Part shown: one piece after another, positions 719-35,352 of the stretch
Position numbering within the stretch: position 1 is the stretch's first letter
Layout of the letters: each line of letters starts with the position of its first letter
From: Asterionella formosa
Lineage: Eukaryota
Direction: 5' to 3'
DNA length: 35,667 bases
Assembly (NCBI GenBank): GCA_002256025.1
Contig: NKIB01000051.1
Location: 1 to 35,667, forward strand
Position numbers and translations under genes: made by a program
The notes under the pieces: model-generated
Seen by the model: the letters and a program-made list of their open reading frames with translations, nothing else
Database searches by the model: none
What the model was told of the DNA's origin: nothing

Positions 719-843
719 AGTTGAAACAGACAAGTCAAATGAATCTTGTTTGTGTCTCCAAATTAGTCCAGTCATGACCTTTTTGGGTCTAGTCATGAAC
801 ATGAATCAATCTTTGAGTTTTGTCACGAACATGAGTCGATCTT
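719..843 (+). repeat. 5' LTR of Copia A (truncated by deletion)
   Basis: Near-identical to 4061-4205 apart from a short duplicated motif, then jumps directly to the PBS. Confidence 0.85.
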
Positions 844-1914: not shown

Positions 1915-3408
1915 AATATTTTATGATTTGTACCATTTGAAAATTTTGTATGACTCCCGCTAATTGAGGGGCTTAATTAAATTACTTACTTGTAGGTACA
2001 AGAATTGATGCGGAAAAATTCAAAGACAGTACATCAGGTCATGGAAAACAATGTTTTCCTCATGCATTGTATATATTTGAATTATGTATAAGCTTAATTG
2101 ATGATAGTATACACATTATGTGCATATATTTATACATTTTCAAATTCTTATAAATGTACACATATCCTATCTATACATTTGAAATCATGTTTAGAGGTTC
2201 CTTGTTATGCATACCGGTAGCACATGATCCTGAAATGAAAGATCATCTCTGCACTGTGACAAGGAAAACTGAAAGAACGACGCTTCAACGCACCCAATGA
2301 TGATAAACCTTTCGGCTTAGAAGGATTGAAAATGGAAAAGTGAACTGAATCTAGCTATGGTATGTCAAGAGTACATGCCAAGGTGATCAATTGTTGGGTT
2401 CACAAAGACAAAATGATTGCCTCCTTCCCTAGCAATTCAAAAGCACATTTCGCATTCAGTGGGATACCACCAATGCTGACCAAAAACTTGTAAATGCTCT
2501 TGTTGGATCAATGAGCCACTGTTAGAACATCACTGACACATGTTTGTTTTTCAAACTTTCAGGATAATTTTAATCAAAGATTTTTGTTGTAAGTTATAAA
2601 TGACATTGGTGGAATGGTTTATTGATTTGTACTTATGTGACCATTGACTGACACATTATTTTACTGAATTATGCGAAAAGTTCATCGATTTCTGGTAAGT
2701 GGAGCATGCTAAAATGGGACTGCAGTATTGAGATATAAACAACATGGCTACTAACAAGCGATTAATTCCTTCTCATTTTCATTATGATTAGGAAATCAAA
2801 ATAGATAAAACAGAATCGGATCAAAAGGAAATGGGATTTGCAGCATGAAGTCAGATGGGTTTCAGAGTCTGAGTGGAAGGGAGGCGGGAGGCATGCATCA
2901 AGAGATTTGAAGGCAGGATGCAATGCATCCTCAAGAGCATTGAAGGGAAGCAGGAGGCATGTATCCTTAAGAGCATTGAAGGGAGTTGGGGGAGGCATGC
3001 ATCCTCAAGAGCATTAAAGGGAGGCAGGAGGCATGCATCAAGAGCATTGAGACAAGAATAGAAAATGGGAACATTGGCTGTTTAACCTCACAAAATGTAG
3101 AAACATAAAATTGATTTCGTGATATAACAGTAAAATTACAATCCTTTTCAACCTATTTTTAACAGCTATTTCGATTAGAGTTACCATCATATCAGGCAGG
3201 ATAGGTATATGATAAAGGAAATACATCATAGGATAATATTTTGATAATTATATGGTGGTTTGATCATTATGAGTAAGCTTAGCCTGTTCACTTTCATAGT
3301 ATGCATTCATTTATCATACATATAACGAAAAATGTATCATGCACAGAAAAATTCTGTGCCAGTTATCGTATGATACCCCTGATTGTATAAGTACGATTTT
3401 TTATTTAC
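1915..3408 (+). mobile_element. Inserted fragment of an unknown repeat family, homologous to 24343-26005 (inverted)
   Basis: Collinear shared blocks with the reverse complement of 24343-26005: acttgtaggtacaagaattga, ttccttgt.atgcata, tgtagaaacataaaa, ctgtgcca.tta...tttattt.cag. Confidence 0.75.
2876..3050 (+). repeat. Minisatellite, 5 copies of a ~33-38 bp unit (gaagggaggcaggaggcatgcatcctcaagagcatt)
   Basis: Directly visible head-to-tail degenerate units with no spacers. Confidence 0.85.
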
Positions 3409-4037: not shown

Positions 4038-4060
4038 CTGTTTGCTCTGCTGAGGGGGAG

Positions 4061-4548
4061 AGTTGAAACAGACAAGTCAAATGAATCTTGTTTGTGTCTC
4101 CAAATTAGTCCAGTCATGACCTTTTGGGTCCAGTCATGAACATGAATCAATCTTTACTCATGCATGAATCAATCTTTGAGTCTTGTCATGAACATGAGTT
4201 GATCTACTCATGTATATGACTTAGTTTTGTTTGTTTGGTTTGCTAAAAGTTAATTCTATAAGCTCCCTTTATTTGGAAATACCAATCGAGTCAGATCTAT
4301 CCTACAACATTCTCCTAAATTCACCATGATCCTTCGATCCACTGCCTGGCACCTACGTTGCTTACTGGTAGTATATTTATCAAGATATAACAAGTCGAAC
4401 TCCTTTCAGGTTAATCTACGACTTCTCGTTCAAGTCCTTGCTTCAACTGTGAACCATTCGTCATCTTGTCCTTATAATTTTGTCTCACCATCTGCTATTT
4501 TAGTTTCATTATCTGAAGACTTTCACTTGCCATCTGTTAGTTCCAACA
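4061..4548 (+). repeat. 3' LTR of Copia A (right end approximate)
   Basis: Starts AGTTG immediately after the PPT. The candidate end is ...gttccaaca at ~4548. Confidence 0.7.
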
Positions 4549-6380: not shown

Positions 6381-7103
6381 TTATGTAATTCTTGACGTTT
6401 CACCAACCAGCGTGCTAAACTCCTTGTCATAGTGACCACTGTCAGTAGGTGGCAACTCCACCAAATCCAAATACCTGTCCAAAATGTCCAAGGCTTCCAA
6501 AAACTTTCTTTGAGCTGCCGGATCGCTTGTCTTTGGGTTTTTGACTACCATCTTCTCCATGTCATCCATGGTCTTGAAAAACGCCTTTGCAGCCTTAACA
6601 GTAGGCAAATTGTCAGGAGCTTTGACCTGATTTAAACGAAAGGCGTTACCCAGCAAATACATACTGGCCTTCATATCATTGTATCTAGAGTCTCTGATTT
6701 CTTTTCCCTTGCAGTCTCCATCCTTTTTGGTACATTGTCCGTTGACATCCTTTCTCTTGGCTTCCACTACGACAGTCCCTTGTACATCAAAGAAATGCTG
6801 GATTTCTGGTTTCGTCATGTCACCCGCAATGACAGCAGGACCCATGATGAGAAATTCATGAACTGCTTGCTGTACGCGCCCGTAGTAACGGCGCTTGGCT
6901 ATAGGAATCGTCGTGTATTTACCCGCAGTGGCGCCACCAGATGCCAACGAGGGAACAGAGGAGGCGATCCAAGCCGTCGTTGCAATGGTGGTTTGGAGAA
7001 AAACTCGTCGCTCGATATGAGGCGTGGGATCCTTGACAGAGAAGGAACTACAAGTGCCAAGTAGCATGGCGAGACAGGGGAAAAGAGCCGTTCTCGTCCT
7101 CAT
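6381..7103 (-). CDS. Putative thylakoid-lumen protein (240 aa) of unknown function
   Basis: From the ATG at 7103: signal peptide MRTRTALFPCLAMLLGTCSS-F, then a twin-arginine RRVFL, a hydrophobic stretch and an S-L-A cleavage site, followed by a helical mature domain. Confidence 0.8.
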   Translation of the reverse strand: MRTRTALFPCLAMLLGTCSSFSVKDPTPHIERRVFLQTTIATTAWIASSVPSLASGGATAGKYTTIPIAKRRYYGRVQQAVHEFLIMGPAVIAGDMTKPEIQHFFDVQGTVVVEAKRKDVNGQCTKKDGDCKGKEIRDSRYNDMKASMYLLGNAFRLNQVKAPDNLPTVKAAKAFFKTMDDMEKMVVKNPKTSDPAAQRKFLEALDILDRYLDLVELPPTDSGHYDKEFSTLVGETSRIT

Positions 7104-8259
7104 GATAGAAGCAAGGTTTCTGGTTATATGCTTCCGAAGCTGTGATTGGCGTTCTGAAGAAAGAAGTAGAAAAGATTTTGGATCCACCTGCTTATAACTT
7201 ATTCTTATACCTCGAACCAGTACCTGGTACCCTGGTCAACCTAGTTCGTAACTATCCCTGGTACCAGGTACCAGGTACCGGTACTGGGATCTGGGGTGTA
7301 CCTGAAACTCGTTCAATGTACGATAGAGCCTTATCGGAAAAGATGGCTGACACCAAGACCTCAATTAACGTATTTGTACCGTCAGAGTTATTTATGTGAT
7401 GTTCATACGAACCCCAAGCACAATGAGACGACGAGCGCAGGCAAACGTTCAGCCCATGCATGTGGCAGTCGAGAGCCCGTAACGATGACGTTGATCGAAC
7501 TGATCAGCCAGCATGCCACAGATACCGGTACCCTGATACCTGCAAGTTGCCGTCATTTTGCCGAAACTGAAACGCGGCGCCGGCAGGCACTCAAATTCGA
7601 CTCCTCGGGTAATATTTCCGTACCTGGTACCTGGTACCTGGTAACGGGTAACTGGTATTGGTACTATAGAAATCTTAATGGTTTCACCCTGGCCAATTAA
7701 TATCAATATATGATCAAAATCTAAATTTGAAGAATGATTTTCTGAAAAAACCAGTTTCCAAATCTTGCTACCGATACTACGATTGGTGGGTTTCGGATTG
7801 GGGTTTTTCCCCCCAAGCACAATTCTGAGTGTCAAGATTCCTTATTCCAGAAATCTCCTCGTTTACTGCTATGTATATGCATTTCACTAGTACCAGTATG
7901 AATGTAAGGCTGAAACTTACTGTGCCCGAAATACAAAGATCAAATATTGTAAAGCTATCATGGCAAAATCTTCGATCTTTGTATTCGGGAAATTTTATGG
8001 CCACCTTGCAGTCCCGAAGATAAAATAGTATGTCAATCCATGCGTCAAATGACCAATCTTGTGAATTGAAATTTATTTCCTACATGAAAATTGGTAGAAT
8101 TGTCCATAGGAATATTATAGTAATTAAAATAATAATAATAATAATAATTGTCAACACTCAACGCTCCATTGCTGTCATTGCTGTTGTTGTAGCAAGATTG
8201 GCCTTCACATCAGCCTATCTCCTTTCTCCTCTCCAACCACCAGCATCTCCCTACTGTCA

Positions 8260-9579: not shown

Positions 9580-10760
9580 TTGTTCCATCTTTTACGAAAT
9601 TCTTCATAATAATCAACAAGTTGTTGAACTCTATTCCACCATTGGCTTTGTTTACCAGCAACTGTTTCATTAAAGTAGCTGTGTGAAGTATCATTCAATT
9701 CCATGCAGTCACCTTGCACAGTATGTACAGTATGCTGTGTCTCAGAACTTTCACAGTCAAGAAGGTAACCATCACATTCTTATAGAATGTTATCAAGCAT
9801 ACAGCATGACGTGAACGCATTTTCGATATGCTCAGGTCCAAGTTGTTCCAGTTCTTAAGAAAAAACCATCGACTTTTCAATATACCAAAAGTACATTCAA
9901 TATCTTTTCGAAAAGACTCCACCATCATACCCCATGCCCTATCTTTTCCATTTTCATTGCCATATTTAATTGGACAAATCAACAACGGCCATCATAGGTA
10001 CTCTCCATCACAAATGATGAAATAGTAGCCTTTACAAGTAATAGACGACTCAACAGTGAGCACATTCCACTCTTAACTGCCAAGAAACGAATTTCTATCG
10101 TGTAGATTGGAAACAGCAGCATCAAACTTTACTATGTGTTTGTCATTTCTTGTTCCTCGGTGTAGGTAGCTGATTGATAAATCTTTCTTCTGTGATCAGA
10201 AACCACCTCAAAAACAACTGAAGGATAACCCTTGGAACCTTTAAATATATTCTTCCAGTAGGTGGGACATCGATTCCACCCAATGTACACACAATCGACA
10301 GAGCCTATACAGCCTGGAAGCCCAAGGGAACTGTAATCATTAAGAATTCCTTCAAATTGTTCATCATCTTCCTCTTCCTCTTTCTCTCTCAGTGTGTATA
10401 CATTTTCATCCTTCTTTTCTGCAAACTTTGAAGTCCAGTGAATGAAAAATTTTCTGTGTACCTCTTGTTTAGAGATATCAGTTTGAATGTTCACATACAA
10501 ATGGGAAACACCGGTTGCTATAGTGTAAAGAACACCATGTAGGAGCAACTCAAGGGCCTTGCACAGAAGATTGGTGCAATCTTCTTCCCTGTGCGGATCA
10601 TACCAACTATTTGATATTGTCATATCATACAGTTTCAAGAATATGTCGAATGGAAGACAAAACAGTTGTAAAAGAGTCTTTCTTCCCATGTGTTCATGTC
10701 CAATTGTAAGATGCGCTTTTCGTTTGTTAGGAACTTCTTCCACTAACATGACTCTTCCCT
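9580..10760 (-). pseudogene. PIF/Harbinger DDE transposase pseudogene
   Basis: Motifs GLPGCIGSVDCVYIGW.RCP, KGSKGYPS, IICDGEY and ESFRKDIECTFGILKSRW, split by frameshifts and stops. Confidence 0.92.
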
Positions 10761-11822
10761 TGACACCAGAGGTTGTTTAATTCCTTTGTCGCTTAGTAAA
10801 TGTTGTTGGATGGCGATTGCTGTTGGACGGCAATTGCTGATTCCCTCTTTCAGATTGAACTTCCAAATGGAACTGAGAAACCAGCTCATTTCGCAACGCA
10901 GCTGGCAAGGCTGCTGGTAGTTCCCATGACAACCATTGTTGCTTCCATGGCTGCACACACTGTTGAAAATGTGCCAGGAAGGTTGACGATAGCGTTGGCG
11001 GAGTTGTTATGTTAGAAATTATTATTATCATAATAAAAATATAAAAGTATTTAATAATGACAATAATACTACAATAGAAGTATCGAATACTATATCATCA
11101 GTATAGGTGATGACGATTATATATTGTTTCCGCCATTCTGATTGGTGCAAACAATCTTCGTTTGCCCGAAGATCAATCTTTGGGAAACGAAGATTGTTCA
11201 AGAAAACACGAAGATTGGGTCAATATCGGTGATGACCCTCGAAATATTCAGGCGAACGAAGATTAATCTTCATAATTGGGGGGGATTTGCGAGTTATTTA
11301 GCCCGTAAGGACGAAAATACGAAGATTAAACGCCGAACAGGTATCTGGGCGACTCAATCTTCGTAATTTGGGCACTGTAAGACGGGGTCTGAAGAAGTGG
11401 AAACTGCTGTGGTACATACCGGTTGGTAACGTATGCATTACATGAACATGCCAGTAGTAAACAACATGCATGATGTTCTATGCACTGCCTGTACATACAT
11501 AAATAATTATACAATCACTGGCAAATCGAACATGAGAAATTGGCCCCCTCCAAAAATTATCAGCAATACTGGCAAGTATCCTTTCTGTTGTCACTGATAA
11601 AATAACTGAAAGTACACAAGCATGGCACTAATTTTAGCACCACATATTAAATTTCAGTTTGGCATGGCTGTGCAGCACCACAACATTTGTTTTCAATGTT
11701 TACAGCCATCATGTGCGAAAAGCATCACGGTGATGTCTTGAACCTACTATGTCAGGCACCCACCATGCTGGCTGAACTTATGCAAGGAGATTTTGGTTCA
11801 AATGTATTTTCAACAGATTCCT

Positions 11823-17207: not shown

Positions 17208-19229
17208 TCAGTTTAGTGTTTCAAAGTCTGGTAGGGGAGTTGCCCATCCATCTCGTTCAGGCAACAATTGGTAAGTCTCTTGCAATCTGGCCGTGATTAC
17301 TCCTCGTTCACCATTGCCGATGACCCGTCCATCAATCTTCGTGACGGGCGTCAATTCTCCCATCGTCCCTGTGGTAAAGACTTCATCGGCCGAATGGAAT
17401 TCTGACAAGGATATGCGTCGCACTTCACATGGAATTCCCAACTCTGCGGCCAAGGTAATGACAGTTTGGCGAGTAATTCCTGGTAGACAGTGATCGGCAT
17501 GAGGTGTCATCAAGACCCCATCGTCTACCAAAAACAAATTGGTGGCATTGGTTTCACTGACATATCCATCAACATCCAACATGATGGCATCAGCACATCC
17601 TGCCAAATTGGCTTGTATCTTTGGTAAAATGTTATTAATCAGATTGTTGTGATGAATTTTGCTGTCAACTGTATCGGGACGATTCCGTCGTTGACTGGCA
17701 GTAATGAGAGAAATTCCATTTCTATTGTCGTAGGTTGTGGCGCCTTCGGTTGGCTTCCATTCGGGTAAGATAATGAGAGTCGTCCCATAAATGTTAAATA
17801 CTGGATTCATGGACGACGTGCACTTTTCCCCTCGAGTCAAGGTCAATCTCATGTGCGCACCATCTCTCATTCCGTTGGCCGCTAATACGCGAAATATACT
17901 TTCAACAACTTCTTCTTTCGTATGAACTTTCTCAAATCCCAATGCCTTGGCTGACTTGAACAATCGTCTCAAGTGCTTGTCCAAGGACAAAATCTTTCCG
18001 CGATAGACTCTCAGCCCTTCCCAGGCAGCGTCACCGCCTTGTACTGATGAATCAAATGGACTCACGCCAGCCATGTCTCTTGGAAGCAACCTTCCTCGAC
18101 CAGGTGTTCCGATCCAAACTAGTAAATCCGCATTGCGTGCATCTTCGTACACCATAGTTGGGCGAGTGAAAATTTGGGAGTGAAGAAATGCATAGGCTGG
18201 CATGGATGCTCGCAGGGCCGATACCAGTGTTGGATCGAGAGTACGGTATTTGGAAAGAGGGGCCATGTGTGATTTTCGAACCCAACCTGTCGATTTGTGA
18301 ACATCATCGTACCACCATTTGGCCCATGGTCCATCACATGCTTTCGGTCCTGCGGGCCATGTGAGCATGGCATCGGTGTACTCAATGCCCAATTCTGCAC
18401 ATAGGTGGCCAAGTGTCCCCGATGGATCCGATGCAAGGTCGTCGCTGTCCAATAGGACCACCGGAAGTGTTGAATGAGACGTGAGTGTACTGTAAATGGC
18501 CAATAGGGGAATAATCCCCACTTCGTCTGTACTGGGCGAGTTGCCATGCACGTGCGAAGAGTTTGACCACGAACTGAGCACAGCGACGGGATCTCTAATC
18601 AGCAAGACGTGGCGTTGAATGATCTCAACGTTGCGTGGAGCCTCCAAGAACATGTCTTGTTCTAGGTCATACAGGCCACTATGTTTGGCCATGTGCTTGC
18701 AAAAAATAATACCCGATGCTCGTCCTGATAGGGCCTCGATTCCGTCTAGAATTCGCTGCTGCATGGACAGCTGCTCTCGTTGCCACTTGTCCACATTCGC
18801 TCCATCTGGCGAGGTCCCATCCATCATGCTAGCGAGGTAGGGTCGTTCCACGGAGTGTCCCTTTTGAATGAGCCATTCTCGATAGAGAGGTTCGTCCAGG
18901 GCGATCGTATCGTCTCCTCTGGCTTCAAAGCTGTAGAGCAGGGCTGTGCTGCGAGAGCGAGGTGCTGACCAGCAGTGGACAACTGTAATGGTGGCGGCGG
19001 ACGAATGATCCGACATGGTGTCTCGAATGACGGAGGACGAATCGGTACTAAAGCACAGCGACCGATGAAGGCCATGACGCCTGCGGGTTGGGACAACAAC
19101 ATCAAGATCAGCAGTCTCTGGGTTTGTTGATGCTGGAGGGAGACCCCGACCATCACTCTCTTGGTCGTTCTTGTTCAAGTTAGGGTCGTTCTTGTTCAAG
19201 TTAGAATCATAGTAATTGTTCTCCATCAT
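17208..19229 (-). CDS. Fusion of an N-terminal sulfotransferase-like P-loop domain and a class IV PLP aminotransferase (BCAT-like protein type); start at 19229 or 19016
   Basis: N domain: WSAPRSRSTALLYSF, DEPLY, KHMAKH, LLIRDP. C domain: FDSSVQGGDAAWEGLR, HLRRL, SKIHHNNL, ETNATNLF, LPGITR, ADEVFTTGTMGELTPV. Confidence 0.92.
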   Translation of the reverse strand: MMENNYYDSNLNKNDPNLNKNDQESDGRGLPPASTNPETADLDVVVPTRRRHGLHRSLCFSTDSSSVIRDTMSDHSSAATITVVHCWSAPRSRSTALLYSFEARGDDTIALDEPLYREWLIQKGHSVERPYLASMMDGTSPDGANVDKWQREQLSMQQRILDGIEALSGRASGIIFCKHMAKHSGLYDLEQDMFLEAPRNVEIIQRHVLLIRDPVAVLSSWSNSSHVHGNSPSTDEVGIIPLLAIYSTLTSHSTLPVVLLDSDDLASDPSGTLGHLCAELGIEYTDAMLTWPAGPKACDGPWAKWWYDDVHKSTGWVRKSHMAPLSKYRTLDPTLVSALRASMPAYAFLHSQIFTRPTMVYEDARNADLLVWIGTPGRGRLLPRDMAGVSPFDSSVQGGDAAWEGLRVYRGKILSLDKHLRRLFKSAKALGFEKVHTKEEVVESIFRVLAANGMRDGAHMRLTLTRGEKCTSSMNPVFNIYGTTLIILPEWKPTEGATTYDNRNGISLITASQRRNRPDTVDSKIHHNNLINNILPKIQANLAGCADAIMLDVDGYVSETNATNLFLVDDGVLMTPHADHCLPGITRQTVITLAAELGIPCEVRRISLSEFHSADEVFTTGTMGELTPVTKIDGRVIGNGERGVITARLQETYQLLPERDGWATPLPDFETLN
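19163..19204. repeat. Perfect 21-bp tandem duplication
   Basis: ggtcgttcttgttcaagttag twice; in frame, encoding NLNKNDP/NLNKNDQ on the minus strand. Confidence 0.9.
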
Positions 19230-20164
19230 GGAGCAGAATATGTTCCAGCTACCTATTGAATCAGTGTGGAAAGCACCGGTAAATGCGTCCAAAGACCCTC
19301 AGTTCGAACGATGGCAATGATGTCTATGTATGTGCTGAGATGTAGAGGGCGGATGGTCAACAATTTCTCTGAATTTTGTGGTAACAGCGATGGTGACAGG
19401 AGGGACGAGAAATCACAGAATACCCGGCGGTGCGAGTGTACCGGTAGTTAGGATCGAGCAACGACTGCGATGGCATCAGGATGCGCGTGTCAGCATACCG
19501 GTACCTGTGTCCGATACATACCAGGAGGCAGGAGGGGCGATGGTCCCGGGAGTACTGTATGTACTGTAGTATAGGGACCCTAAGGTACTCTATGCAACTA
19601 AGCCAAAACCTGGTACCTGGTACCGGTACTACCACCTGGTAGTATTTCATTCACACAACACGTGTGCTCGTATTGTATGTATGATGCGATTTAGGATTCG
19701 CATTTTGTGAGCTCGGCCGCTCTATCGTACAGTCATGCGGCCGACACTGCATCACTCACACAAATAAAAAAGCATGGCGACCGGCACAACTTGTATACCA
19801 CCACTATAAAAGGCTATGAGTATGCACGTTTGCGAACTCGAGATTATGTACCGGTATCTGCCTACCAGTACACACATACATGTACAGCAGAAAATAGATT
19901 CTTTACTACCGCCGGGTACAAAAGGTTGGCCGTGCATGAACGGTAAGCACAAATCGACAATGTAAATACCGGTATGATAGGCAGCTACCGGCATAAAATA
20001 AAGCAACTTTTCTCAAATGTGTGCAGCAAAGAGAAAACTTGTGCATCATCCAAAATGCATCACTTCGTTTACTTGGAGAAAATATAAAATCGCACATACG
20101 CTAGAAATAACAAGTAGTTACAATTTGTTTTCATCATTTCCTGTTTATATTAAATGGGCCATGG

Positions 20165-21429: not shown

Positions 21430-21813
21430 TTTCTCCTTGTAACTGTGAGGAATATAAATGGAGCAGGCTTTGTCGTTATTATCGTTTTCTTGTCGTGGGT
21501 TGTTTTGTTTTCATTACTGTAAGCCATAGTAAAGCAGGAACCAGAAGGTCATTCCTCGTTGCTGTTCGTTGCAGTTTTCTTTCGCTCACTCTTCGAGAGA
21601 CTTCCATGTCAGCACCCGGCAAGGGAATATTGGGAGGCTCTGTCACAAACGACCACGTGTTCAACTTGACGCGACGCGAGCGAAAACGAACGCAAAGGAA
21701 AAATCGGTACCCGGTAAAGAAAATACTAACACGTGGCTGAACCTAACAATTTAAAACGCATTTAATACCGGTAGTCGGCAAGACTAATGGTATACCAGTA
21801 AAATAGGGAAGGT

Positions 21814-22509
21814 AGTTGGTAGATGCTACGAATTTGTAGCTCTCACGCAGTAAAAGTTGCTAGAAAAAATGTTTCTACACAATTTGTTTGTTTTACTTAG
21901 TTTGCTAGTAGCTAATAGTTCTTGCTTTTATAAAAGAGGGAACTTAATGTAAATGTTAATGTAAATTTGAATTTATAATTTTGAAACTTACAAGCTCATG
22001 CATGTTTCAAAATAGAGTTGATCTTCAGTGGTGATATTCATTTGTGTTCCCAACTTGAACTGAGAATAAACTACATCCTCTTCCTAGTACTAAATACACA
22101 TTTGTCTTAATCTTGGCCTGTCTCAACTTAGGCCAGATGCTGTTTGATCGAAGATTGCTTTCCGAATAATCTTGTTAATCATAAATAGATCATGCATATC
22201 TAGTTAGCTTCTTTAATGTTCCTTGATTTTGCGGACATATCTGTAATTGTCTAGTCAATCATTTATTGATTTGGCCTCTAGTTCCGATTGCCTTGTTCTA
22301 GCTAGATTCCATTTAAAAGGTTAGAGAGAACTTCTCCTGAAAGTTCCTCTCTCAACTGTGGCATTGTACATGCGATATTCAACCATGTGTCCTTGAATCA
22401 ATAATCTAGTGGATTGGGGTACATGTTCCCAATCAGGTCACCAGAGACGAAATTATATTGACACTCTCATAACCTGATCTGGAATCAGGAATCTCTATAT
22501 GTTTCAACT
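21814..22509 (-). repeat. 3' LTR of Copia B (696 bp)
   Basis: Direct repeat of 29858-30556 with termini AGTTG...CAACT, adjacent to the PPT. Confidence 0.95.
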
Positions 22510-22529
22510 CTTCCTCTCAGCAAAAGCAT

Positions 22530-22744
22530 GTTGCCACCATCCACATAGTAACTTGCGTATTGCTGTAAATTTCTCTGCTACTAAACCCTTTAGGAAAATG
22601 TCCCCAACTTGTTTTGTAGTTTCAATCTTTAAGATTTCAATATTACCTGATGACACGTACTCTCTTAACCAATGATATGCCACTGCAATATGTTTTGTAT
22701 GTGGCGTCATTTTCGGCATTGTCGCTTGAGACAAACATGCACTA
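22530..22744 (-). pseudogene. Copia RNase H C-terminus
   Basis: SACLSQATMPKMTPHTKHIAVAYHWLRE...QVGDIFLKGL...LCGW. Confidence 0.9.
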
Positions 22745-25700
22745 CATCTAAGGCGCCGCTTATGTCATCTTTTCGAATTTATGTCTAAAGTGACGTATTT
22801 ATGCTACTTATCTAAAATATTATGCTAGTGTTTTGGGAATTTATTCGGTTCAAACCAAAATTTATGTGTTCTATAACAAAATTATCTTCACTTATCGAAT
22901 AATTATGTGATCAAACAAATAATTATGTGAGTTCGCAACAATATTTTCTTACCAACTAGCCATTATGGCCAACTTGCGTCACTTCACGGCAATATTATGC
23001 TGGTCACACCACATAACAAAATAAAGAGTCCCCAGTTTCGACTCAAAAAATATTTTTTCCGCTATCACAATTGACTTTGATATCAACTGCCAAAGAGCAA
23101 CACATCTATTTGCGCCAATACCTGCATCCACGAATACACAAATTATCGGGGGCACAGTAGAATCAATCCATTCTCAGTTGATAAAAAACATTTTTAATAC
23201 CTTTTGATTCAACTAATCATGTTATTGTTATAGTCGTTGTCTTACTCATTGCTCAGCTATTGCGACAATGTCAAATCTGCTCGCAGCAGCGTCGTTTTGG
23301 ATTGTGCAGCTATAGATAATGTAGAAAAAATGTGCCATTGGCGATTTCAGTTTTCGTTGTCAATATCAGTGTTACAACAATTATTCTTTTGCGATTGTAT
23401 TGTATTTGTTGTGCTTGAAATTTGTACCAAATATGAAAGTTTCGTTCTCAATTTTCGTAGAGATTTCCCCTATTTTTGTCATGGTCAAGGCTGAGACAAC
23501 ATGATTGAGGATGCTCCAGCCAATCACAACGACTTCACTGTATTGTTTTGTATATACAAAAGAATCGCATGATTACCGGTATCTCAGCTATATAATAATC
23601 TACTATGTTTCGCCTACAAGGGCTACCTTGGGTACCAGCACTGTATCCTGAGCATGAACACATCCATACGTATTTTACTCATGTTTCTATTACTGGTGCT
23701 GCGCAGTTGAAGAGTGGTGGTAAAATTAGAGGTTCTCATTGTATGTAGACTCGTTCAACACTGCAGACCACGCCAGGATTTTAGCGTGTTCAGTTTACAG
23801 TAATCTGGTACATTGTATTAGGAAATGAGCACAATTGATCGCGCCCATATTAATTCATTACATATATGTTATTGTCGTCAATCTTGCACCACATAATAAT
23901 AAAATCATGCTGAAACGCAAACTCGCATTGACTACTATGATGGCCTCGTCATGGTACCACATTTCATGTGATTTTTCTTTTTTCTGAGCTGCTCCTTCTC
24001 TCAGATCAACCTTCTTCTTTCTCATTATACCAGAAATGAACCGTTGCAGTGCTCTGTTAGTTCTGGTACTGCGTCGCTATGGAAGCGACATTTCTTGTTG
24101 TTGACTTTGCTCAATTCATTCTTGTTCCAATGCTGCTGTTTCTTGTGGAATCACTCCTACAGCATCTTGTACCATATTCCTAGTGGGAGGTAGCCTAAGC
24201 AGCCACTTACTTGTATCCCCCACATCCATCTGTGCTGGTACACTCTCCAATACTTCGGGTGGTAGTGCAGCAACACTAGAGTACAATTGTGTATACCTTA
24301 CTGGTGTCATAATCACCTTCACTAGTGACTCCCCCTGAGGTTGTCTGCAAATAAAAACTATCATGAACATATGATCAAGGGTATTGTATGCTAAGTGGCA
24401 CAGGATTTTTACATATATGATAGTTGTTGGATCAAAAATATCATCAATGTATCATATAATTATGATCATGCAGTAAACTTTTACCAAGCTTGAAGTATGA
24501 TGATCATACTATCATAGTTATATTACCATTGCATCATATAATTAGTTAAACATGGTCCTATGATGTGTATACTTTTGTCATTCATCTATCTTACATGATC
24601 GTAATTCTCATCGATATCACTGTCTAAATAGGATGAAATTGATCGAAATTTAGAACTATATTTAAAAATGGTTTTATGTTTCTACATCTTGAGTGGCTAC
24701 AGAATGTTCTACAATGCTCTCATCGCAATGATTGGTGCTTTCACTTCCACCTTCCTCCCAATCCAATTCTGAATGTTGTTGTAGTAATACTGGTTGCCTT
24801 GCCCTTGTTCCCCTGCTTTCCGTTTATTCCTGATGGATCTAAGTTTGCATTCACGCATTTTCCCATTACTACTTAATCTGTTTCGTTGTCCCAATTATAC
24901 TACTAACAAAGAGAAGCAACAACTCATTGTTACCTGTTCATGTTTTGCTTACACAACAACATGCATTTCGCTTCTATCTTCACTTACCACAAATTGAGGA
25001 AGTAACTGATGCATATTTCTGTCAAATAATGTGCGTGTAAGTTGAACATTTGAATAAGCAAGTATAGATGATCAATGAATAGGCTCCAACGCTGCTGGTT
25101 GTAACTTACAAAAACTGCTTGTCTACCATTATCCTGAAAGAAGCAACACAGCCACATGTGTCAGTTTTTCTAACAGTTGTGGATTGATCCAAAGATGATA
25201 GCACTTTCCGAATTCTTTTGTCCACATTGATGGTTGGCCAGCCACCAAATCGAAAAGGAGCTATTGAATCACTGAGAGGGGACGAGTCATTCTTCTGTAT
25301 TTGTAATCCCAGAAATTGATCATCCTGGCATTTGCTATTGACAAACCGTGATGCTATGCACAGCGTGTTGATTCCGCCCTTCTCCATCATATTCACTCCT
25401 TTTAGCCGCATGGTGTATCATCGTGTTGTATTGTCACTTCAGTTTTTCGCATCATGTGTTGCTTGAGCTCGTCCTTCATTTCAGGAAGTGTATGCATTAC
25501 AAGGAACATGAAAGTCATTTGCTCTTGACTTACCATTAATTGATCCCGCCCTTCCTCTCCGTAGTCACTCCTTCTAAGCCGCAAGTATCATTGAATTGTA
25601 TTATCACTTTCGTTTTCCGCATCATCATGTGTGATGATCCTCCATTTCAGTAGCAAATTTTATGCATGACAAGGAACATGAAAACATGATTTCAAATGTT

Positions 25701-26330
25701 ACAGCCATCATGAATACATCTATATAAATTTGTAAGAAATTTAAATGTATATATAGTTGAACATTTGCATAGTTTTAAACACGCTCATTATATGGCACAT
25801 CCTTTGTATACTAACATCAATTTTGATTATACATAATTCAAATATATGCAATGCATGATAATTTCATAGTTTTCCATGATCTGTTGAATTTTTTGAATTT
25901 GCTTTGTGTCAATTCTTGTACCTACAAGTCAGTGGCTGATTTTTAAGCCCCTTAATAAACAGGAGTCTTTACTAATTTTTCAAATGGTCTAAATCATACA
26001 TTTATGAATATAGACACCATATTGACCACCATATACATTCGAAAAATTCATATGTCCTACCAGTAGTACTGTATACTTGCTGGGAATTACTTCTATCATG
26101 GGAGCACCACAATAGTGCAGCGGAAAACTGAATATGCTCATGTGTTTAGGATCATTTGATCATCTTTCTAAGATCAATTAGTAATCCTGATTCCTGAAAA
26201 TTAATTTTGATCTTTCATTTTCTCATCAACGACACCATTTATCACATGATCAATATGTTAGCTAGTCTATGATCAAAGGTATAGGATGATCAAATCAAAA
26301 TTTATTGATTGAAGATCATAATTTGCTTAT
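22745..26330. mobile_element. Unclassified nested insertion beginning CATCTAAG, with ttatg(t/c) subterminal repeats and decayed, possibly intron-containing coding sequence
   Basis: Interrupts RNase H at the EDN|SA motif. Its terminus is related to 185-227 and its internal part is homologous to 1915-3408. The right boundary was not identified. Confidence 0.6.
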
Positions 26331-26479
26331 ACCGGAGTAGTTGCTCATGTATGCAACCCTTCCCCCCCTGTATACAGTAGCTAGCTACGGAAGTGATTAC
26401 CCCCAAGCTACCGAAATTTTATGTCTTGTAAGAATTATCGCAGCATGCATGCATACATGACTCCTACTGCTATATACAA

Positions 26480-27525
26480 TACCAGACTACCAATGATCCC
26501 ATAGGTCTTGTAGAGTTTTCGAATGCGTTCAGCTATGTAAACTTTTGCTCCTAGACACTATCTCATCACCCTTGTTATAGATTTTTCTTTATCTTTTGGC
26601 TGCACAGGCCCAGGTTACTCAATGCCTTCATCTGCAAGTTCAGCCAAGCATGTTGGCGTCAAGAAAACCTCAACCCCGATTTTCCTCACATGCTCCGCCC
26701 ATCGACCCTTTCATTGATGAAGTCGAGGTAGCTAAATTGGCATCAGGTGGCGCTGGCTTGTGTATGGAATGATGATGCCGAAATCATTGCTTCCTTTTCC
26801 GATAGGTACCTATTTGTCAAGAAAATTGTTTGGGTCAATCTATCATCCTTGTTCCCGCAAGACCAGCAGCAATTATCCCTTTACTTATCCTCCCAAGAAT
26901 CTTCTTTTCTCTTTCACAAGAATTGTCCTGATATTTGCAGAGAATTTTTAGTTCCCTTTTGAATTTTCCACTGGTTTCGATCCCTTTGGCATTCCAGTCA
27001 AGAAACAAGCAAGCCATTGAGATTTCTGGAGGTTTTGGTCAGTGGCACCAGACAGCAACAACCAACAGATCATGGCGGCTGTTCTCCATTTTCTGTAGCA
27101 AGTGACATCCAAGAAGGGTCTTGGATCATTGGGGAGAAAAATTAGTAAACTTCTCTGTGTTTGGGGGGGGGGGGGGGGGCGCGCGCGGGGGGGGTGGCAT
27201 TCTACCATTACTTGTTCCTCTCAATCAATAACAGTAAAATTGAAAACCGTAATTAGATGAAATGTGACTTCCAGTTTCTAATATTTTACATTGTTGCACT
27301 AAGACTGAAACTTGAATCCATAAATGGGCATTCAACTTGTGCTTTTTGCATTTTTGCAGTAGATAGTAGGCCAAAGTGTCTGGCTTTTTATGAGCATCTA
27401 CAAAGTCGTGCTTTTGTCTAGGGTTGTGTCTAAATCCAACTGCTGCCATCCATTGAACCATTCTAGATACATCAAAGAATACGCTCCTGTTGTCAAAGGT
27501 AAGGAACTGGTACGATGACAAAGGA
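26480..27525 (-). pseudogene. IS630/Tc1-like DDE transposase remnant nested in Copia B
   Basis: Motifs FVDAHKKPDTLAY and LTPTCLAELADEGIE resemble (Y/F)VDGHE.P and TPKCH.ELAGEGIE as recalled for this group; many frameshifts. Confidence 0.6.
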
Positions 27526-27649
27526 TATCTAATGAGACATGAAAATTACGAAACGAGAATCACTCTCTTACTATACATACTAGACAGTCTCTTGCTTCTT
27601 TGTGCATATCGCCTGCTATGCTGCGTTTCAATTCTAAATGTATTATGTT

Positions 27650-29650
27650 CTCGTTAGAGAGACGATCCATGTCTAGGTACCACTAGAGACCAAGTAAATA
27701 TATCAATTGGTGATTGTCCTGTCCGTGCTCCTGGCACATGGTTATAGACATGTACAGCATAATCAACAGTCATGGGCCATAGCGTTGCATCAGCAATTTC
27801 AGGCCATCTAATTGATGCATGTAGCATCAGCCATGACTCTTGCCATAGTATTAGGCAGATACAGTTCGTATGCTTCTCTCAGCAGCCCCATTTGGTGATG
27901 TGCACCTACTCCACAGTAATTAACCTGTTTTACACGTGCAATGATAGCATCAACAAAGTCCTTAGTGCCAAAAGTGCCATTGTTGGTCATATGTTGGCCT
28001 AGTACTATGAGAACCCGTGGTTGTAAGCCCAGCCAATTTTCGAATTGCTGCTTTTGGTTGCTGAGAATCCCACCTGGTGGTGGACATAAAGTAGGCCAGA
28101 TGCATGGTGCATACACAAAGATACAGCCCCCTTTATACATACAGGAGTCATGTGACTTTCTTCACAAAGAATATTGTCTTCCAAGCACTCGTGATTCGAA
28201 ATGGTCTATAGATACCACTCCTGAGACTGGATAGCCTGGATGTATGTCTCCTAGCTTCACCTTTCTCTCCCTCTCAGGCGATGGAGTGCCAATTGTAGGG
28301 TGCAGTACAACGGCGGGCATCTGCACTAATTGACAGTTGTTGTAGTATCCACTGTATAGTGGCAGGGCCCCAATGTCCCAATTTATAATGCCAGCGCAGA
28401 TGCTACTCCTTCTGAGGAGCTTCCGCTAGGTTCCGGTTACAATCCTTAGTGTCGCATAGATGTAGTGATTCCTTGCGTAGTAGTGTCGCAGTAGAAGATT
28501 GGGTGGCTTTACTTGTTGGCACTTCATTAATCGGGTCGTGATCAATGCTCAGTATTGGTTTACCAGCTATTTGTAGCTGTGCGTGGTCATCCAGTACAAC
28601 AAAACAACCAGAAATACCTTGTTCCTTAGAGAAAAGTATCCGTTGGGGAGATAGTAGGCAGACACGCACTGTGGGCATAGCGGGACTTCAGACTGTAGCT
28701 ACCTGTACCTATTCCTTCTAATGTAAGACCTGATGCTCCCCTACCAAACCATCTGACTGATTCTTGGGAAAACAGTCTTGAAAGCTGGCCAGCGGTCAGC
28801 CATATTCAACTAGGTGCTTGTAGCTGGTCATAGCCAACTAACATAAATATTTGACACCTACTAAAGAAGTATTCTGGAGTGCCAGAATTATCATAATGTC
28901 TTTCCCAAGCAAGTACCTCTCCTCATCAACCTCAACAGACTTGGAATAGAAGAGAGTACGAAATTCCTCAACACTGCAGCATAGAAATTTAGCAATAACC
29001 ATGCTGGACATACTAGTAGCAGGGACTGCATTGTTAATATATTTAAGCAAGTTATACATACTAGTTAGTACATCATTGACTAACAAACATACGTTCTCAC
29101 CAGGATAGTTTGACAGAGACAGGTTTCAAAAGTGTTCGACCACAGAACCACTGTCCATAAGTTGAGACGACACTGAGATAGCCTCATTCATCAAAGTTAC
29201 CCATAGAAGGAGTCCAGGACCCCTATCAGCCACCATGCTGCTAGTCATCAAGGCGTTCGTATAAGCCACCAAGTAGCTTAGGATCTACATGAGACTCAAT
29301 CAACCTCCATAGGTGCATAGAGTCATCCCTAGCTTGGTCATCCCAGACCATGGCCCTGGCTAGTACAGATGCCTCAGTTTCGGCTGTACTAGGGGCGTCA
29401 TACTGATACTACAATGGGCTGGCTCTGGTACTACAGGACCAGATTTGATGCGAAAATGACATTGCAGTCTTGAAATGTCTGGTGATTGCACCACCAGAGT
29501 ATTGTAACCCCTTGGGCGTGACGTCTCCACATTTTGTTGCTTGCGTCCTCATCATCGTCATTAAGTATGCCTGGTCGTGGTGAGTTGTTGCTTGTTGAAG
29601 TTCTTAGTTCAAGCTGTTTTGTTCGAACAGCACCCTCAAGAAAATTTAAA
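27650..29650 (-). pseudogene. Copia B gag-protease-integrase remnants
   Basis: Integrase motifs VSIDHFES, YKGGCIFV, TNNGTF, YCGVGAHHQMG and LWPMTVDYAVHVYNHVP, plus an upstream LGH zinc-binding segment. Integrase precedes RNase H, which is the Copia order. Confidence 0.85.
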
Positions 29651-29836
29651 TGACACACTTCACGAAGAATACATCTGTGTTGTTACCTTGTATAACAGAG
29701 GCACTGATGCAGTCGTGCTTGCTAGTATCTCACGTGACTATGTAGGAGGCTACAAGAAGTCGAAAGCAATCTCTTGCCTGACTCTCACAACCTTGTGGTG
29801 GAACGAACCTTGTTGTGTAAGAACAATTTAGGTACG

Positions 29837-29857
29837 AGCGTGTTGGGCTCAACAACA
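29837..29857 (-). other. Primer binding site complementary to the D/anticodon arm of initiator tRNA-Met
   Basis: The plus strand agcgtgttgggctca(acaac) resembles the tRNAiMet internal segment AGCGTGxTGGGCxCATAACC and lies directly inside the 5' LTR. Confidence 0.75.
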
Positions 29858-30556
29858 AGTTGATAGATGCTAAAAATCTGTAGCTCTCACACAGTAAAAG
29901 TTGCTAGAAAAAATGTTTCTACACAATTTGTTTGTTTTACTTAGTTTGCTAGTAGCTAATAGTTCTTGCTTTTATAAAAGAGGGAACTTAATGTAAATGT
30001 TAATGTAAATTTGAATTTATAATTTTGAAACTTACAAGCTCATGCATGTTTCAAAATAGAGGTGATCTTCAGAGGCGAGGTTCATTTGTATTCCCAACTT
30101 GAACTGAGAATAAACTACATCCTCTTCCTAGTACTAAATACACATTTGTCTTAATCTTGGCCTGTCTCAACTTAGGCCAGATGCTGTTTGATCGAAGATT
30201 GCTTTCCGAATAATCTTGTTAATCATAAATAGATCATGCATATCTAGTTAGCTTCTTTAATGTTCCTTGATTTTGTGGACATATCTGTAATTGTCTAGTC
30301 AATCATTTATTGATTTGGCCTCTAGTTCTGAATGCCTTGTTCTACTAGCTAGATTCCATTTAAAAGGTTAGAGAGAACTTCTCCTGAAAGTTCCTCTCTC
30401 AACTGTGGCATTGTACATGCGATATTCAACCATGTGTCCTTGAATCAATAATCTAGTGGATTGGGGTGCATGTTCCCAATCAGGTCACCAGAGACGAAAT
30501 TATATTGACACTCTCATAACCTGATTTGGAATCAGGAATCTCTATATGTTTCAACT
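29858..30556 (-). repeat. 5' LTR of Copia B (699 bp)
   Basis: Direct repeat of 21814-22509, with about 16 substitutions and one 3-bp indel counted by eye. Confidence 0.95.
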
Positions 30557-30601
30557 AAGGTGGAAAAGTAATGTAGGTGCAGTAGTTTGAATTATTTTAA
30601 T

Positions 30602-34452: not shown

Positions 34453-35352
34453 GTACCAGTAAAAAACTGCATTGACCCACTGACGGTATTAAAAACACGT
34501 TTTGTGATGAAAAAACATTCATTTTCTATTTCTTAAGCTCTAGAATGGATCTTGAGCATATGGCAGTCATACTCTTATTTCTCAACCGATTGGACGTCGA
34601 TCTTTCATTAATTTAGGTCAAAAGTGGTGATCGGAAAAAAAGTGAAAAGCACGGATTATCCCAAGTTTGGAGTTCTCATCTTATATAATGTACAACGATG
34701 AATATAAATTTCTCGCATTTTACGTCTTATCCATAACCTTGTCAATAATAATTCTGTAAATAAAAATTGATGGAACCCGGCTTGACTGTGTAATACCGTC
34801 TTATCCATAACCTTGTCAATAATAATTCTGTAAATAAAAATTGATGGAACCCGGCTTGACTGTGTAATACCGGTTTCTATTTAGGTAGACCATTATAAGT
34901 GGTACGGAGCACCTGTTACCTACCGGCATATCTACCTATGAGTGCGAATAAAACTGAAACATCTATACCGGTAGTACCGGTACCCTGGTACCAGGAATCG
35001 TACACGTGCGATTCAGGTATAATATATGGAGCATCATGCATTTTATGTCTTTTCGCTTTGAACCAAACAGGATAATCCGCCAGTGTTCACCAACGAATAT
35101 AAAATTACTTACAGGTATAGAAAAAATTTCATATACTGAATTGACCCACTGAGACTGAATTTTACGTCTAGATGAATATAAATATCTTCTGAACCAGATG
35201 TTTAATTTTACTAGGTATAGAGTGCTAATGTACCGACGCCTTATGCCTTCAATATTTCCGAACAGATTTCAGAGAGAGATGAGCTAAGTGTTAGTCGAAT
35301 TAATCAAACGAATGGGAGAAAACAGTGGGTCAATGCAGTTTTTTACTGGTAC
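34453..35352. mobile_element. MITE-like non-autonomous DNA transposon (~900 bp)
   Basis: Perfect 30-bp inverted repeat gtaccagtaaaaaactgcattgacccactg (34453-34482) with its reverse complement at 35323-35352. The interior is AT-rich and non-coding. Confidence 0.75.
34723..34870. repeat. Perfect 74-bp tandem duplication
   Basis: cgtcttatccataacc...gactgtgtaatac at 34723-34796 and 34797-34870. Confidence 0.95.

Follow-up and report, generated by a model that had tools for sequence, protein, structure and literature searches.

AG...CT long terminal repeat ends in a decayed Ty1/Copia element of a contig from Asterionella formosa, and A...T ends among its environmental relatives

Introduction

A CA-3' end is regarded as nearly invariant for retroviral-type integrases, and the long terminal repeats (LTRs) of Ty1/Copia retrotransposons usually, though not universally, run TG...CA. 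Among the Copia elements of diatoms, for which the groups CoDi1-7 were defined, TG/CA was found to be missing in three of 26 families, namely CoDi3.2, CoDi4.2 and CoDi4.3 (Maumus et al., 2009; PMC2806351). The window analysed here is the whole stretch of 35,667 nt at positions 1 to 35,667 of contig NKIB01000051.1 (assembly GCA_002256025.1, Asterionella formosa). At 21809-30561 it holds element B, an LTR retrotransposon which reads AGTTG...CAACT and not TG...CA at its four LTR edges, and its left part holds a second element, Copia A. The original prediction, made from the sequence alone, had attributed these ends to a diatom Copia clade with an integrase that accepts a CT-3' end.

Element B is like the CoDi elements in its diatom host, in the Copia domain order of its family and in the length of its LTR, which fits the 153-844 bp reported for them, and CoDi families without TG/CA stand beside TG/CA families of the same groups, as the two kinds are interspersed among the relatives described below (PMC2806351). 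The type of primer-binding site (PBS) and a joint change of both ends are not mentioned in the main text of that study.

For plants, the LTR_retriever preprint reports the motifs TACT, TGTA and TCCA next to the earlier TG..GA, TA..TA, TA..CA and TG..CT, and states that the first T seems invariable; its fallback list, as named there, consists of T-first motifs only. Thousands of TGCT Copia copies have been reported from lotus (PMC9804982), and Copia families with TG...TT and AA...CA ends from Rosaceae (PMC5659011). These plant elements (Tos17 with TG..GA; TGCT, TACT and TGGT in lotus; TGTT and AACA in Rosaceae) resemble the present group in that 3' ends other than CA occur, CT-3' being abundant in lotus, and in the frequent mixing of types with unlike ends on integrase trees. 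However, in the AACA elements the first base is changed and CA-3' is kept, whereas here both outermost bases change (AG...CT, AA...TT) and the ends remain symmetric.

Errantiviruses, which belong to a different superfamily (Ty3/gypsy), have insect hosts, reverse transcriptase (RT) before integrase (IN), an env gene and a target-site duplication (TSD) of 4 bp. In their Zam clade the LTR runs AGTTA...TAATT or TAACT, giving a terminal motif AGTT...AACT which is nearly that of element B (PMC3601003). The end motif is the sole likeness, as IN precedes RT in the intact relative P0005 described below and no env was seen, and this likeness is convergent.

Termini and Target Site of Element B

Direct repeats in the window were located by sequence reading and repeat finding. 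The boundary features of element B are as follows, L001 being an intact relative described in the next section.

21809..21813, no strand: left copy of the 5-bp TSD, AAGGT, adjoining the LTR edge and identical to 30557-30561
21814..22509, minus strand: 3' LTR, 696 nt; plus strand AGTTGG...TTTCAACT; on the element's own strand it begins AGTTGAAAC
22510..22521, minus strand: polypurine tract (PPT) GCTGAGAGGAAG, adjoining the 3' LTR and homologous to the GAGAGGGAG tract of L001 and most related loci
29842..29857, minus strand: PBS TGTTGTTGAGCCCAAC, adjoining the 5' LTR (29857/29858) and two bases off the GGTTATTGAGCCCAAC of L001
29858..30556, minus strand: 5' LTR, 699 nt; plus strand AGTTGA...TTTCAACT
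30557..30561, no strand: right copy of the 5-bp TSD, AAGGT, directly outside the LTR edge

The two LTRs share 97.3% identity over 699 aligned columns with a single 3-nt indel. On the plus strand the first bases of both are AGTTG and the last bases CAACT, with A or T at all four edges (two outer and two inner). The left LTR is preceded by t and followed by c, and the right LTR has an a on either side; with different bases beyond each edge, the ends of the repeat can be placed to the exact nucleotide. The flanking AAGGT copies match at five of five pre-set positions, which would be expected by chance about once in 1000 cases, and the chance of the 5-nt terminal inverted repeat is likewise about 1 in 1000. 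The AG...CT termini of element B are real. The LTR ends, the AAGGT flanks and the abutment of PPT and PBS on the LTR boundaries, all part of the original prediction, were reproduced, the latter at 22509/22510 and 29857/29858.

The prediction did not give a strand. The plus strand just inside the left LTR reads CTTCCTCTCAGC, and the purine tract GAGAGGAAG adjoins 22509/22510 on the minus strand. Because this tract inside the left LTR and the PBS-like sequence inside the right LTR are both minus-strand, element B lies on the minus strand and its left LTR is the 3' LTR. Direct LTRs, a 5-bp TSD, and a PPT and a PBS abutting the LTRs place it with the Ty1/Copia elements.

An Intact Relative with the Same Termini

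A search with a 161-codon piece of Copia A identified P0005, a protein of 1307 residues with the Pfam domains Pol_BBD (62-141), gag_pre-integrs (207-263), SH3_retrovirus (474-541) and RVT_2 (815-1056). The order of protease, IN and RT in this intact family member is that of Ty1/Copia. P0005 is encoded exactly by the marine metagenome contig L001, the LTR of which is approximately 87-90% identical to that of element B. After pol, L001 reads GCTGAGAGGGAG followed directly by AGTTGAAAC, the junction of PPT and LTR being GAGAGGGAG/AGTTGAAAC. The contig starts within the last 62 nt of the 5' LTR, which end in CCAACT and are followed by GGTTATTGAGCCCAAC (junction CCAACT/GGTTATTGAGCCC), and its 3' LTR ends in CCAACT at 6917, followed by the unrelated flank tcttacg. 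The AG start and the CT end are inherited in this independent copy with an intact pol.

Termini across Related Metagenome Loci

Seven relatives were aligned, and metagenome contigs scanned with this alignment yielded 77 related loci. In nearly all loci that reach the end of pol, the tract GAGGGAG (or GGAAGGAG, GAGGAAG) lies 10-190 nt past the stop codon. That the first LTR base is the base after the tract was established by true LTR pairs in element B, L009, L054 and L066; the LTR of L009 starts AGTCAG, and its two copies are preceded by t and g, respectively. Manual curation of the junction readings gave the following classes.

20 of 77 loci: AG as the first bases past the PPT
2 of 77 loci: AA as the first bases past the PPT
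42 of 77 loci: T as the first base past the PPT (41 TG, 1 TA)
8 of 77 loci: start unresolved
5 of 77 loci: end of pol not reached

The A-first elements in which both ends are readable have the following termini.

Element B and L001: AGTTG...CAACT
L004 and L005: AGCAA...GTCGCT
L026: AGTGAAG...CTTTCCT
L059: AGTTAG...CCTACT
L060, L003 and L008: AG...GT
L009: AG...TT
L012: AATCG...CGATT
L034: AATTG...TAATT
L010, an exception: AG...CCA

Where both ends could be read, LTRs starting with A end in T in 12 of 13 cases, and all 18 LTRs starting with T end in A (13 CA, 4 GA and 1 TA, one of the GA ends following a TA start). A 72-nt LTR first taken from a self-match in L034 was replaced by one of 139 nt which ends at the PBS. 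L078, the only match of a scan for the PPT-LTR junction in viral contigs, proved unrelated and was set aside as a chance match.

The T-first relatives ending in GA are L054, L056, L038 and L051, and thus a TG...GA type like that of Tos17 occurs among environmental Copia elements. L054 has a perfect pair of 121-nt LTRs (951-1071 and 7565-7685) with the GA end and a TSD of CATCC.

Many of the metagenome contigs (L006, L015, L018, L028, L039, L042, L062, L074 and others) repeat 99-244 nt at both of their ends. The exact end repeats of 99-132 nt resemble assembler overlaps. Several of the end repeats lie in interior sequence and not in an LTR, and these circular-looking contigs are probably products of assembly. 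Some of them are binned or named as bacterial in their sources.

Copia A

719..843, plus strand: truncated copy of the 5' LTR of Copia A, beginning AGTTGAAAC and followed by TTATGAGCC, a PBS remnant by its look
4049..4400, plus strand: PPT GCTGAGGGGGAG (4049-4060) and 3' LTR of Copia A, running from 4061 to an end near 4360-4400 that is not pinned

In the 3' LTR of Copia A the nine bases AGTTGAAAC stand right after the PPT GCTGAGGGGGAG, as in the family of element B, and this junction of PPT and AGTTGAAAC is shared with L065, a second member of the Copia A family. Beyond AGTTGAAAC the LTRs of A and B are unrelated, and between their interiors there are pieces with 67-79% similarity. At 719, the 5' copy can be matched over only about 125 nt. 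A short LTR with a GATCT end and a PBS right behind it was considered and ruled out, as the LTR of L065 continues for at least 300 nt (it runs for at least 300-340 nt). The prediction for Copia A therefore stands in part: the shared start at 719 and 4061 and the 3' PPT are present, the 3' end of the LTR is unpinned, and no TSD was found under any candidate LTR end (the left flank is CCTTG and the candidate right flanks are unlike it). With all four edges of element B, L001 and the junction of Copia A and L065 in agreement, the termini are not a one-off mutation, in line with the original prediction.

Directly left of the Copia A 5' LTR, at 358-688 on the minus strand, lie frame-shifted gag-like open reading frames (ORFs) with a CCHC zinc knuckle (CNKCHKNGHYANEC), which probably represent a third, truncated retroelement. 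The leader of Copia A contains a short tandem duplication at 963-1135 (units of 82-91 nt, 90% identity).

Phylogeny of the Group

The last 360 residues of pol from 62 loci were used for a maximum-likelihood tree; loci with fewer than 200 residues were left out, and so was element B, in which RT is missing. The tree consists of two well-supported halves, one of 25 rows that are uniformly T-first and one of 37 rows containing the family of element B and every A-first element, interspersed with T-first ones. Five changes of the first base and six of the last base are needed on this tree, three to four of them forced by well-supported branches. A single A...T Copia clade, as originally proposed, is thus not recovered, since A...T and T...A elements are interspersed.

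The catalytic cores of the integrases of 11 A-type, 23 T-type and three untyped loci were aligned and judged by eye. The loop before the catalytic glutamate, GVGAHHQNG.AER, is common to both terminal types, and a GVGGHHHNG.AEN variant is the same in the T-type L017 as in its A-type relatives L004, L005 and L010.

Primer-Binding Sites

A conserved PBS follows the LTR directly, with no spacer, in two versions, GGTTATGAGCCC(AA) and GTTTATCAG, each found in one half of the group. One or the other adjoins the LTR in 23 loci read automatically and in others besides, and the placement was confirmed by LTR pairs in element B, L001, L054 and L066. The pol tree is split by PBS type: the half with all the A...T elements has GGTTATGAGCCCAA, and the uniformly T-first half has GTTTATCAG(A/T) (examples of their positions are L018 at 5811, L066 at 198 and L054 at 1072). 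Read as a complement, the GTTTATCAG type would pair with an anticodon loop CUGAUAA and not with initiator tRNA-Met. The core GGTTATGAGCCC presumably resembles the complement of the anticodon arm of initiator tRNA-Met.

Half-tRNA priming is known from hemiviruses, where nucleotide 40 of the tRNA is the point at which cDNA synthesis begins (PMC1181622), and has been reported for Ty5 and copia (PMC5371799). In having a PBS right after the LTR and no TGG start, the group of element B is like these hemivirus-type Copia elements (copia, Ty5, 1731, Osser). It is unlike them in its terminal base pair, which is A...T and not T...A in element B. The termini of Drosophila copia, TGTTG...CAACA, are unlike those of element B solely in the outermost base pair.

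Interior and Decay of Element B

Within the 7348-nt interior of element B (22510-29857) the longest ORF does not exceed 117 amino acids. Between the PPT and the PBS the following segments were recognized.

22537..22743, minus strand: remnant of the RNase H C-terminus of pol (tblastn, P0005 residues 1239-1307, 93% identical)
22744..24025, minus strand: interior where RT and RNase H would be expected; no protein similarity and no Pfam match in six frames
24026..24340, minus strand: remnant of the pol linker from IN to RT (P0005 residues 617-721, 80% identical)
24341..27665, no strand: 3.3-kb non-coding stretch in place of pol residues 474-616, by comparison with P0005 and with run contigs
27666..28736, minus strand: protease and IN remnants (P0005 residues 95-473, over three frames)
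28745..29841, minus strand: leader and gag-region remnant (about 86% DNA identity to L001 63-443 and 733-1383)

Similarity to pol is visible only when the intact P0005 is used as query, and matches to it are limited to residues 95-473, 617-721 and 1239-1307. A Pfam search of the interior, with single ORF pieces and with six frames read through stops, returned no transposable-element domain, and the RT domain was found neither by tblastn with P0005 nor by the six-frame Pfam search. The order of the remnants (gag, protease and IN, linker, RNase H) is collinear with L001. Since RT was not found and residues 474-616 are replaced by 3.3 kb without coding signal, element B, which lacks an uninterrupted gag-pol with all catalytic domains, is a decayed or non-autonomous Ty1/Copia copy of a family with intact members.

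The stretch at 24341-27665 is a separate repeat of very high copy number. In pieces it resembles the interior of Copia A (approximately 1922-3257) at 67-79%, and in all four public runs described below it has the highest contig depth of the whole region. Many contig joints from different places, including 27618, meet at position 24343, which would fit a tandem or circular form.

Proposed Insertion Mechanism and Alternative Explanations

We consider it probable that 21809-30561 is a single minus-strand insertion of a diatom Ty1/Copia element, the cDNA of which was joined with untrimmed AGTTG...CAACT ends to a 5-bp staggered cut. In this scheme the plus-strand primer GAGAGGAAG would set the start of U3, and a PBS of the GGTTATGAGCCC type would set the end of U5, matching half-tRNA priming with the anticodon arm of initiator tRNA-Met. 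As the LTRs have the same edges on the outside as on the inside, the cDNA ends appear not to have been trimmed and the subterminal CA not to have been used in the retroviral manner; the integrase would have used ...CT-3'OH at both ends in place of ...CA-3'OH. Element B may have been mobilised in trans by intact members such as that of L001, or may have decayed after insertion. We infer the joining through a T 3'-OH from the integrated product, and the trans-mobilisation and the identity of the tRNA primer are likewise inferred.

On a wider scale we put forward, tentatively and as somewhat short of an even chance, a large, mostly environmental and diatom-associated group of half-tRNA-primed Copia elements in which the outermost LTR pair has switched several times between T...A and A...T, the two ends nearly always together and the active-site loop unchanged. 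The integrases of such a group would read the symmetry of the ends and not CA.

Several observations weigh against the explanation given for element B. No empty site or polymorphic allele of the insertion was recovered, and its boundaries are therefore those given by the repeat edges and by the TSD. Element B is the only full element in which AG...CT ends are seen together with two LTRs and a TSD. In L001 the 5' LTR is cut off at its start and no TSD can be read, and most other ends were read from the anchors PPT and PBS, on metagenome contigs of which some are collapsed or possibly chimeric. Ends read from anchors are weaker evidence than LTR pairs with TSDs. L010 combines an AG start with a CCA end. 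In phylogenetically independent pairs the last base follows the first in approximately 2.9 of 3 cases on supported branches, with a median p of 0.25 (sign test); because there are only three to five such pairs, the test falls short of significance, and the covariation of first and last base is consistent with a joint change without reaching proof independent of relatedness. No tRNA genes were found in the window or in 42 of the loci, and the complementarity of the PBS to the anticodon arm of initiator tRNA-Met is presumed. Finally, in the integrase alignment no column of the core separates A and T types by eye. The predicted adaptation of the integrase to CT-3' consequently finds no support, as nothing ties the ends to integrase specificity when no change in the alignment goes with the terminal type.

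Of the other explanations the strongest, to which we give very nearly an even chance, is that the integrases of the whole group read the terminal nucleotide loosely, so that A...T and T...A drift under a weak symmetry constraint and mark no clade. This would agree with the number of changes on the pol tree, including those forced by well-supported branches, with the shared loop of L017 and its A-type relatives, with the A...A ends of L010 and with the variation of the penultimate base (with an A start the LTR ends in CT, GT or TT, and with a T start in CA, GA or TA). Clustering of Copia elements whose ends differ has also been reported from lotus (PMC9804982). However, first and last base are complementary in 30 of 31 elements, which pure drift would not give, and the uniformly T-first half (Group I, 25 rows) indicates that some lineages are constrained. 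Recurrent switching with no change in the active-site loop speaks for integrases that tolerate either base under a symmetry constraint; the almost unfailing complementarity of first and last base speaks against a terminal base that can vary freely.

An assembly artefact, in which two solo LTRs or a chimeric join would mimic one insertion, could be suspected from the interior, which is rearranged with a very high-copy stretch of the kind where assemblies often fail. It is very improbable, as the perfect TSD ties the two outer flanks together, the remnants keep the order seen in L001 and the junctions of flank and LTR recur in contigs of other runs. The least probable explanation, canonical TG...CA ends altered by mutation after insertion or mis-set edges with a coincidental TSD, can draw on the roughly 16 positions at which the two LTRs differ, so that some mutation did happen, and on the TG and CA that sit 3 nt inside each end (AGT-TG...CA-ACT), but the same A and T stand at all four edges, edges shifted inward to the nearest TG...CA leave the flanks GTAGT and ACTAA without duplication, retrovirus-like trimming to the subterminal CA would strip the AGT and ACT which the outer edges retain, and L001 as well as the family of Copia A and L065 have the same junctions.

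Novelty and Consequences

Narrow word searches of the literature returned no report of AG...CT-type retrotransposon ends, or of AGCT beside TGCT and TACA, which is weak evidence that none has been published. The trait is real, but the clade originally proposed has to be cut back: as CT-3' and TT-3' ends and a first-base A are known in plant Copia, and CoDi families without TG/CA are on record, novelty is limited. The AG...CT ends are an uncommon variant, probably with precedent; the termini are inherited and lineage-wide, a modest variant in a class already described. Possibly new are the joint change of both terminal bases and the extent to which the A...T state is spread and recurs among environmental relatives, both read largely from anchors on metagenome contigs. 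The general picture of LTR retrotransposons is unaltered.

Pipelines which demand TG...CA or rely on T-first motif lists will lose such elements or misplace their borders. That finders constrained to TG...CA would miss them had been anticipated, and agrees with the T-first fallback motifs named in the LTR_retriever preprint, by which AG...CT would go unrecognised. At least one diatom genome study used LTR_retriever (PMC8147415). Estimates of LTR content and insertion dates in diatoms could be biased by motif-bound pipelines, and if the wider proposal is true, A...T elements (AG...CT, AA...TT, AG...GT) would be a sizeable part of diatom LTR retrotransposons that such pipelines miss. Repeated joint terminal changes would also offer natural substrates for asking what an integrase reads at the DNA end.

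Host and Public Runs

The ordinary genes in the window are KRI1, a fusion of aminotransferase IV and sulfotransferase, UFD1 and a PAP_fibrillin protein. Every named top match of the UFD1 protein is a diatom protein (56-66% identity), closer matches being unnamed. The 90%-identity cluster of P0070, a pol relative that is 53% identical to P0005 over RT-RNase H, consists of proteins of Fistulifera solaris. Judged by these protein matches the host is a diatom, as the original prediction had held and as the UFD1 matches bear out.

The stretch occurs in runs labelled as algae, freshwater, riverine and lake metagenomes. Contigs of four public runs were placed on the window at 90% likeness. Flank contigs stop 30-32 nt inside the left LTR of element B and begin 29-40 nt inside the right LTR, the junction-spanning contigs being X5 and X6 (32 nt into the left LTR) and X2 (40 nt into the right LTR). 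Since contigs reach across both junctions, the insertion is present in those samples, and the pattern is that expected for a repeat from 21814 to 30556. Among the contig joints listed, a minority of all, none spans the whole element as an empty site would require, which counts neither for nor against such a site. Summed contig depth in run X1, which is not a copy number, is approximately 1,000 in the flanks, a few hundred thousand in the LTRs and more than 1 million at 24243-27839. The LTR family, and above all the 3.3-kb stretch, is highly repeated.

At 10132-10776 on the minus strand lies an ORF with a Plant_tran match in Pfam (PIF/Harbinger-type, transposase-associated; E = 3.7e-10), a putative DNA transposon remnant between host genes. 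The aminotransferase-sulfotransferase gene (17208-19298, minus strand) is a single frame of 696 codons with a Sulfotransfer_5 domain and a class IV aminotransferase domain, an unusual fusion. Near the end of the window, at 34723-34870, there is an exact tandem duplication of 74 nt.

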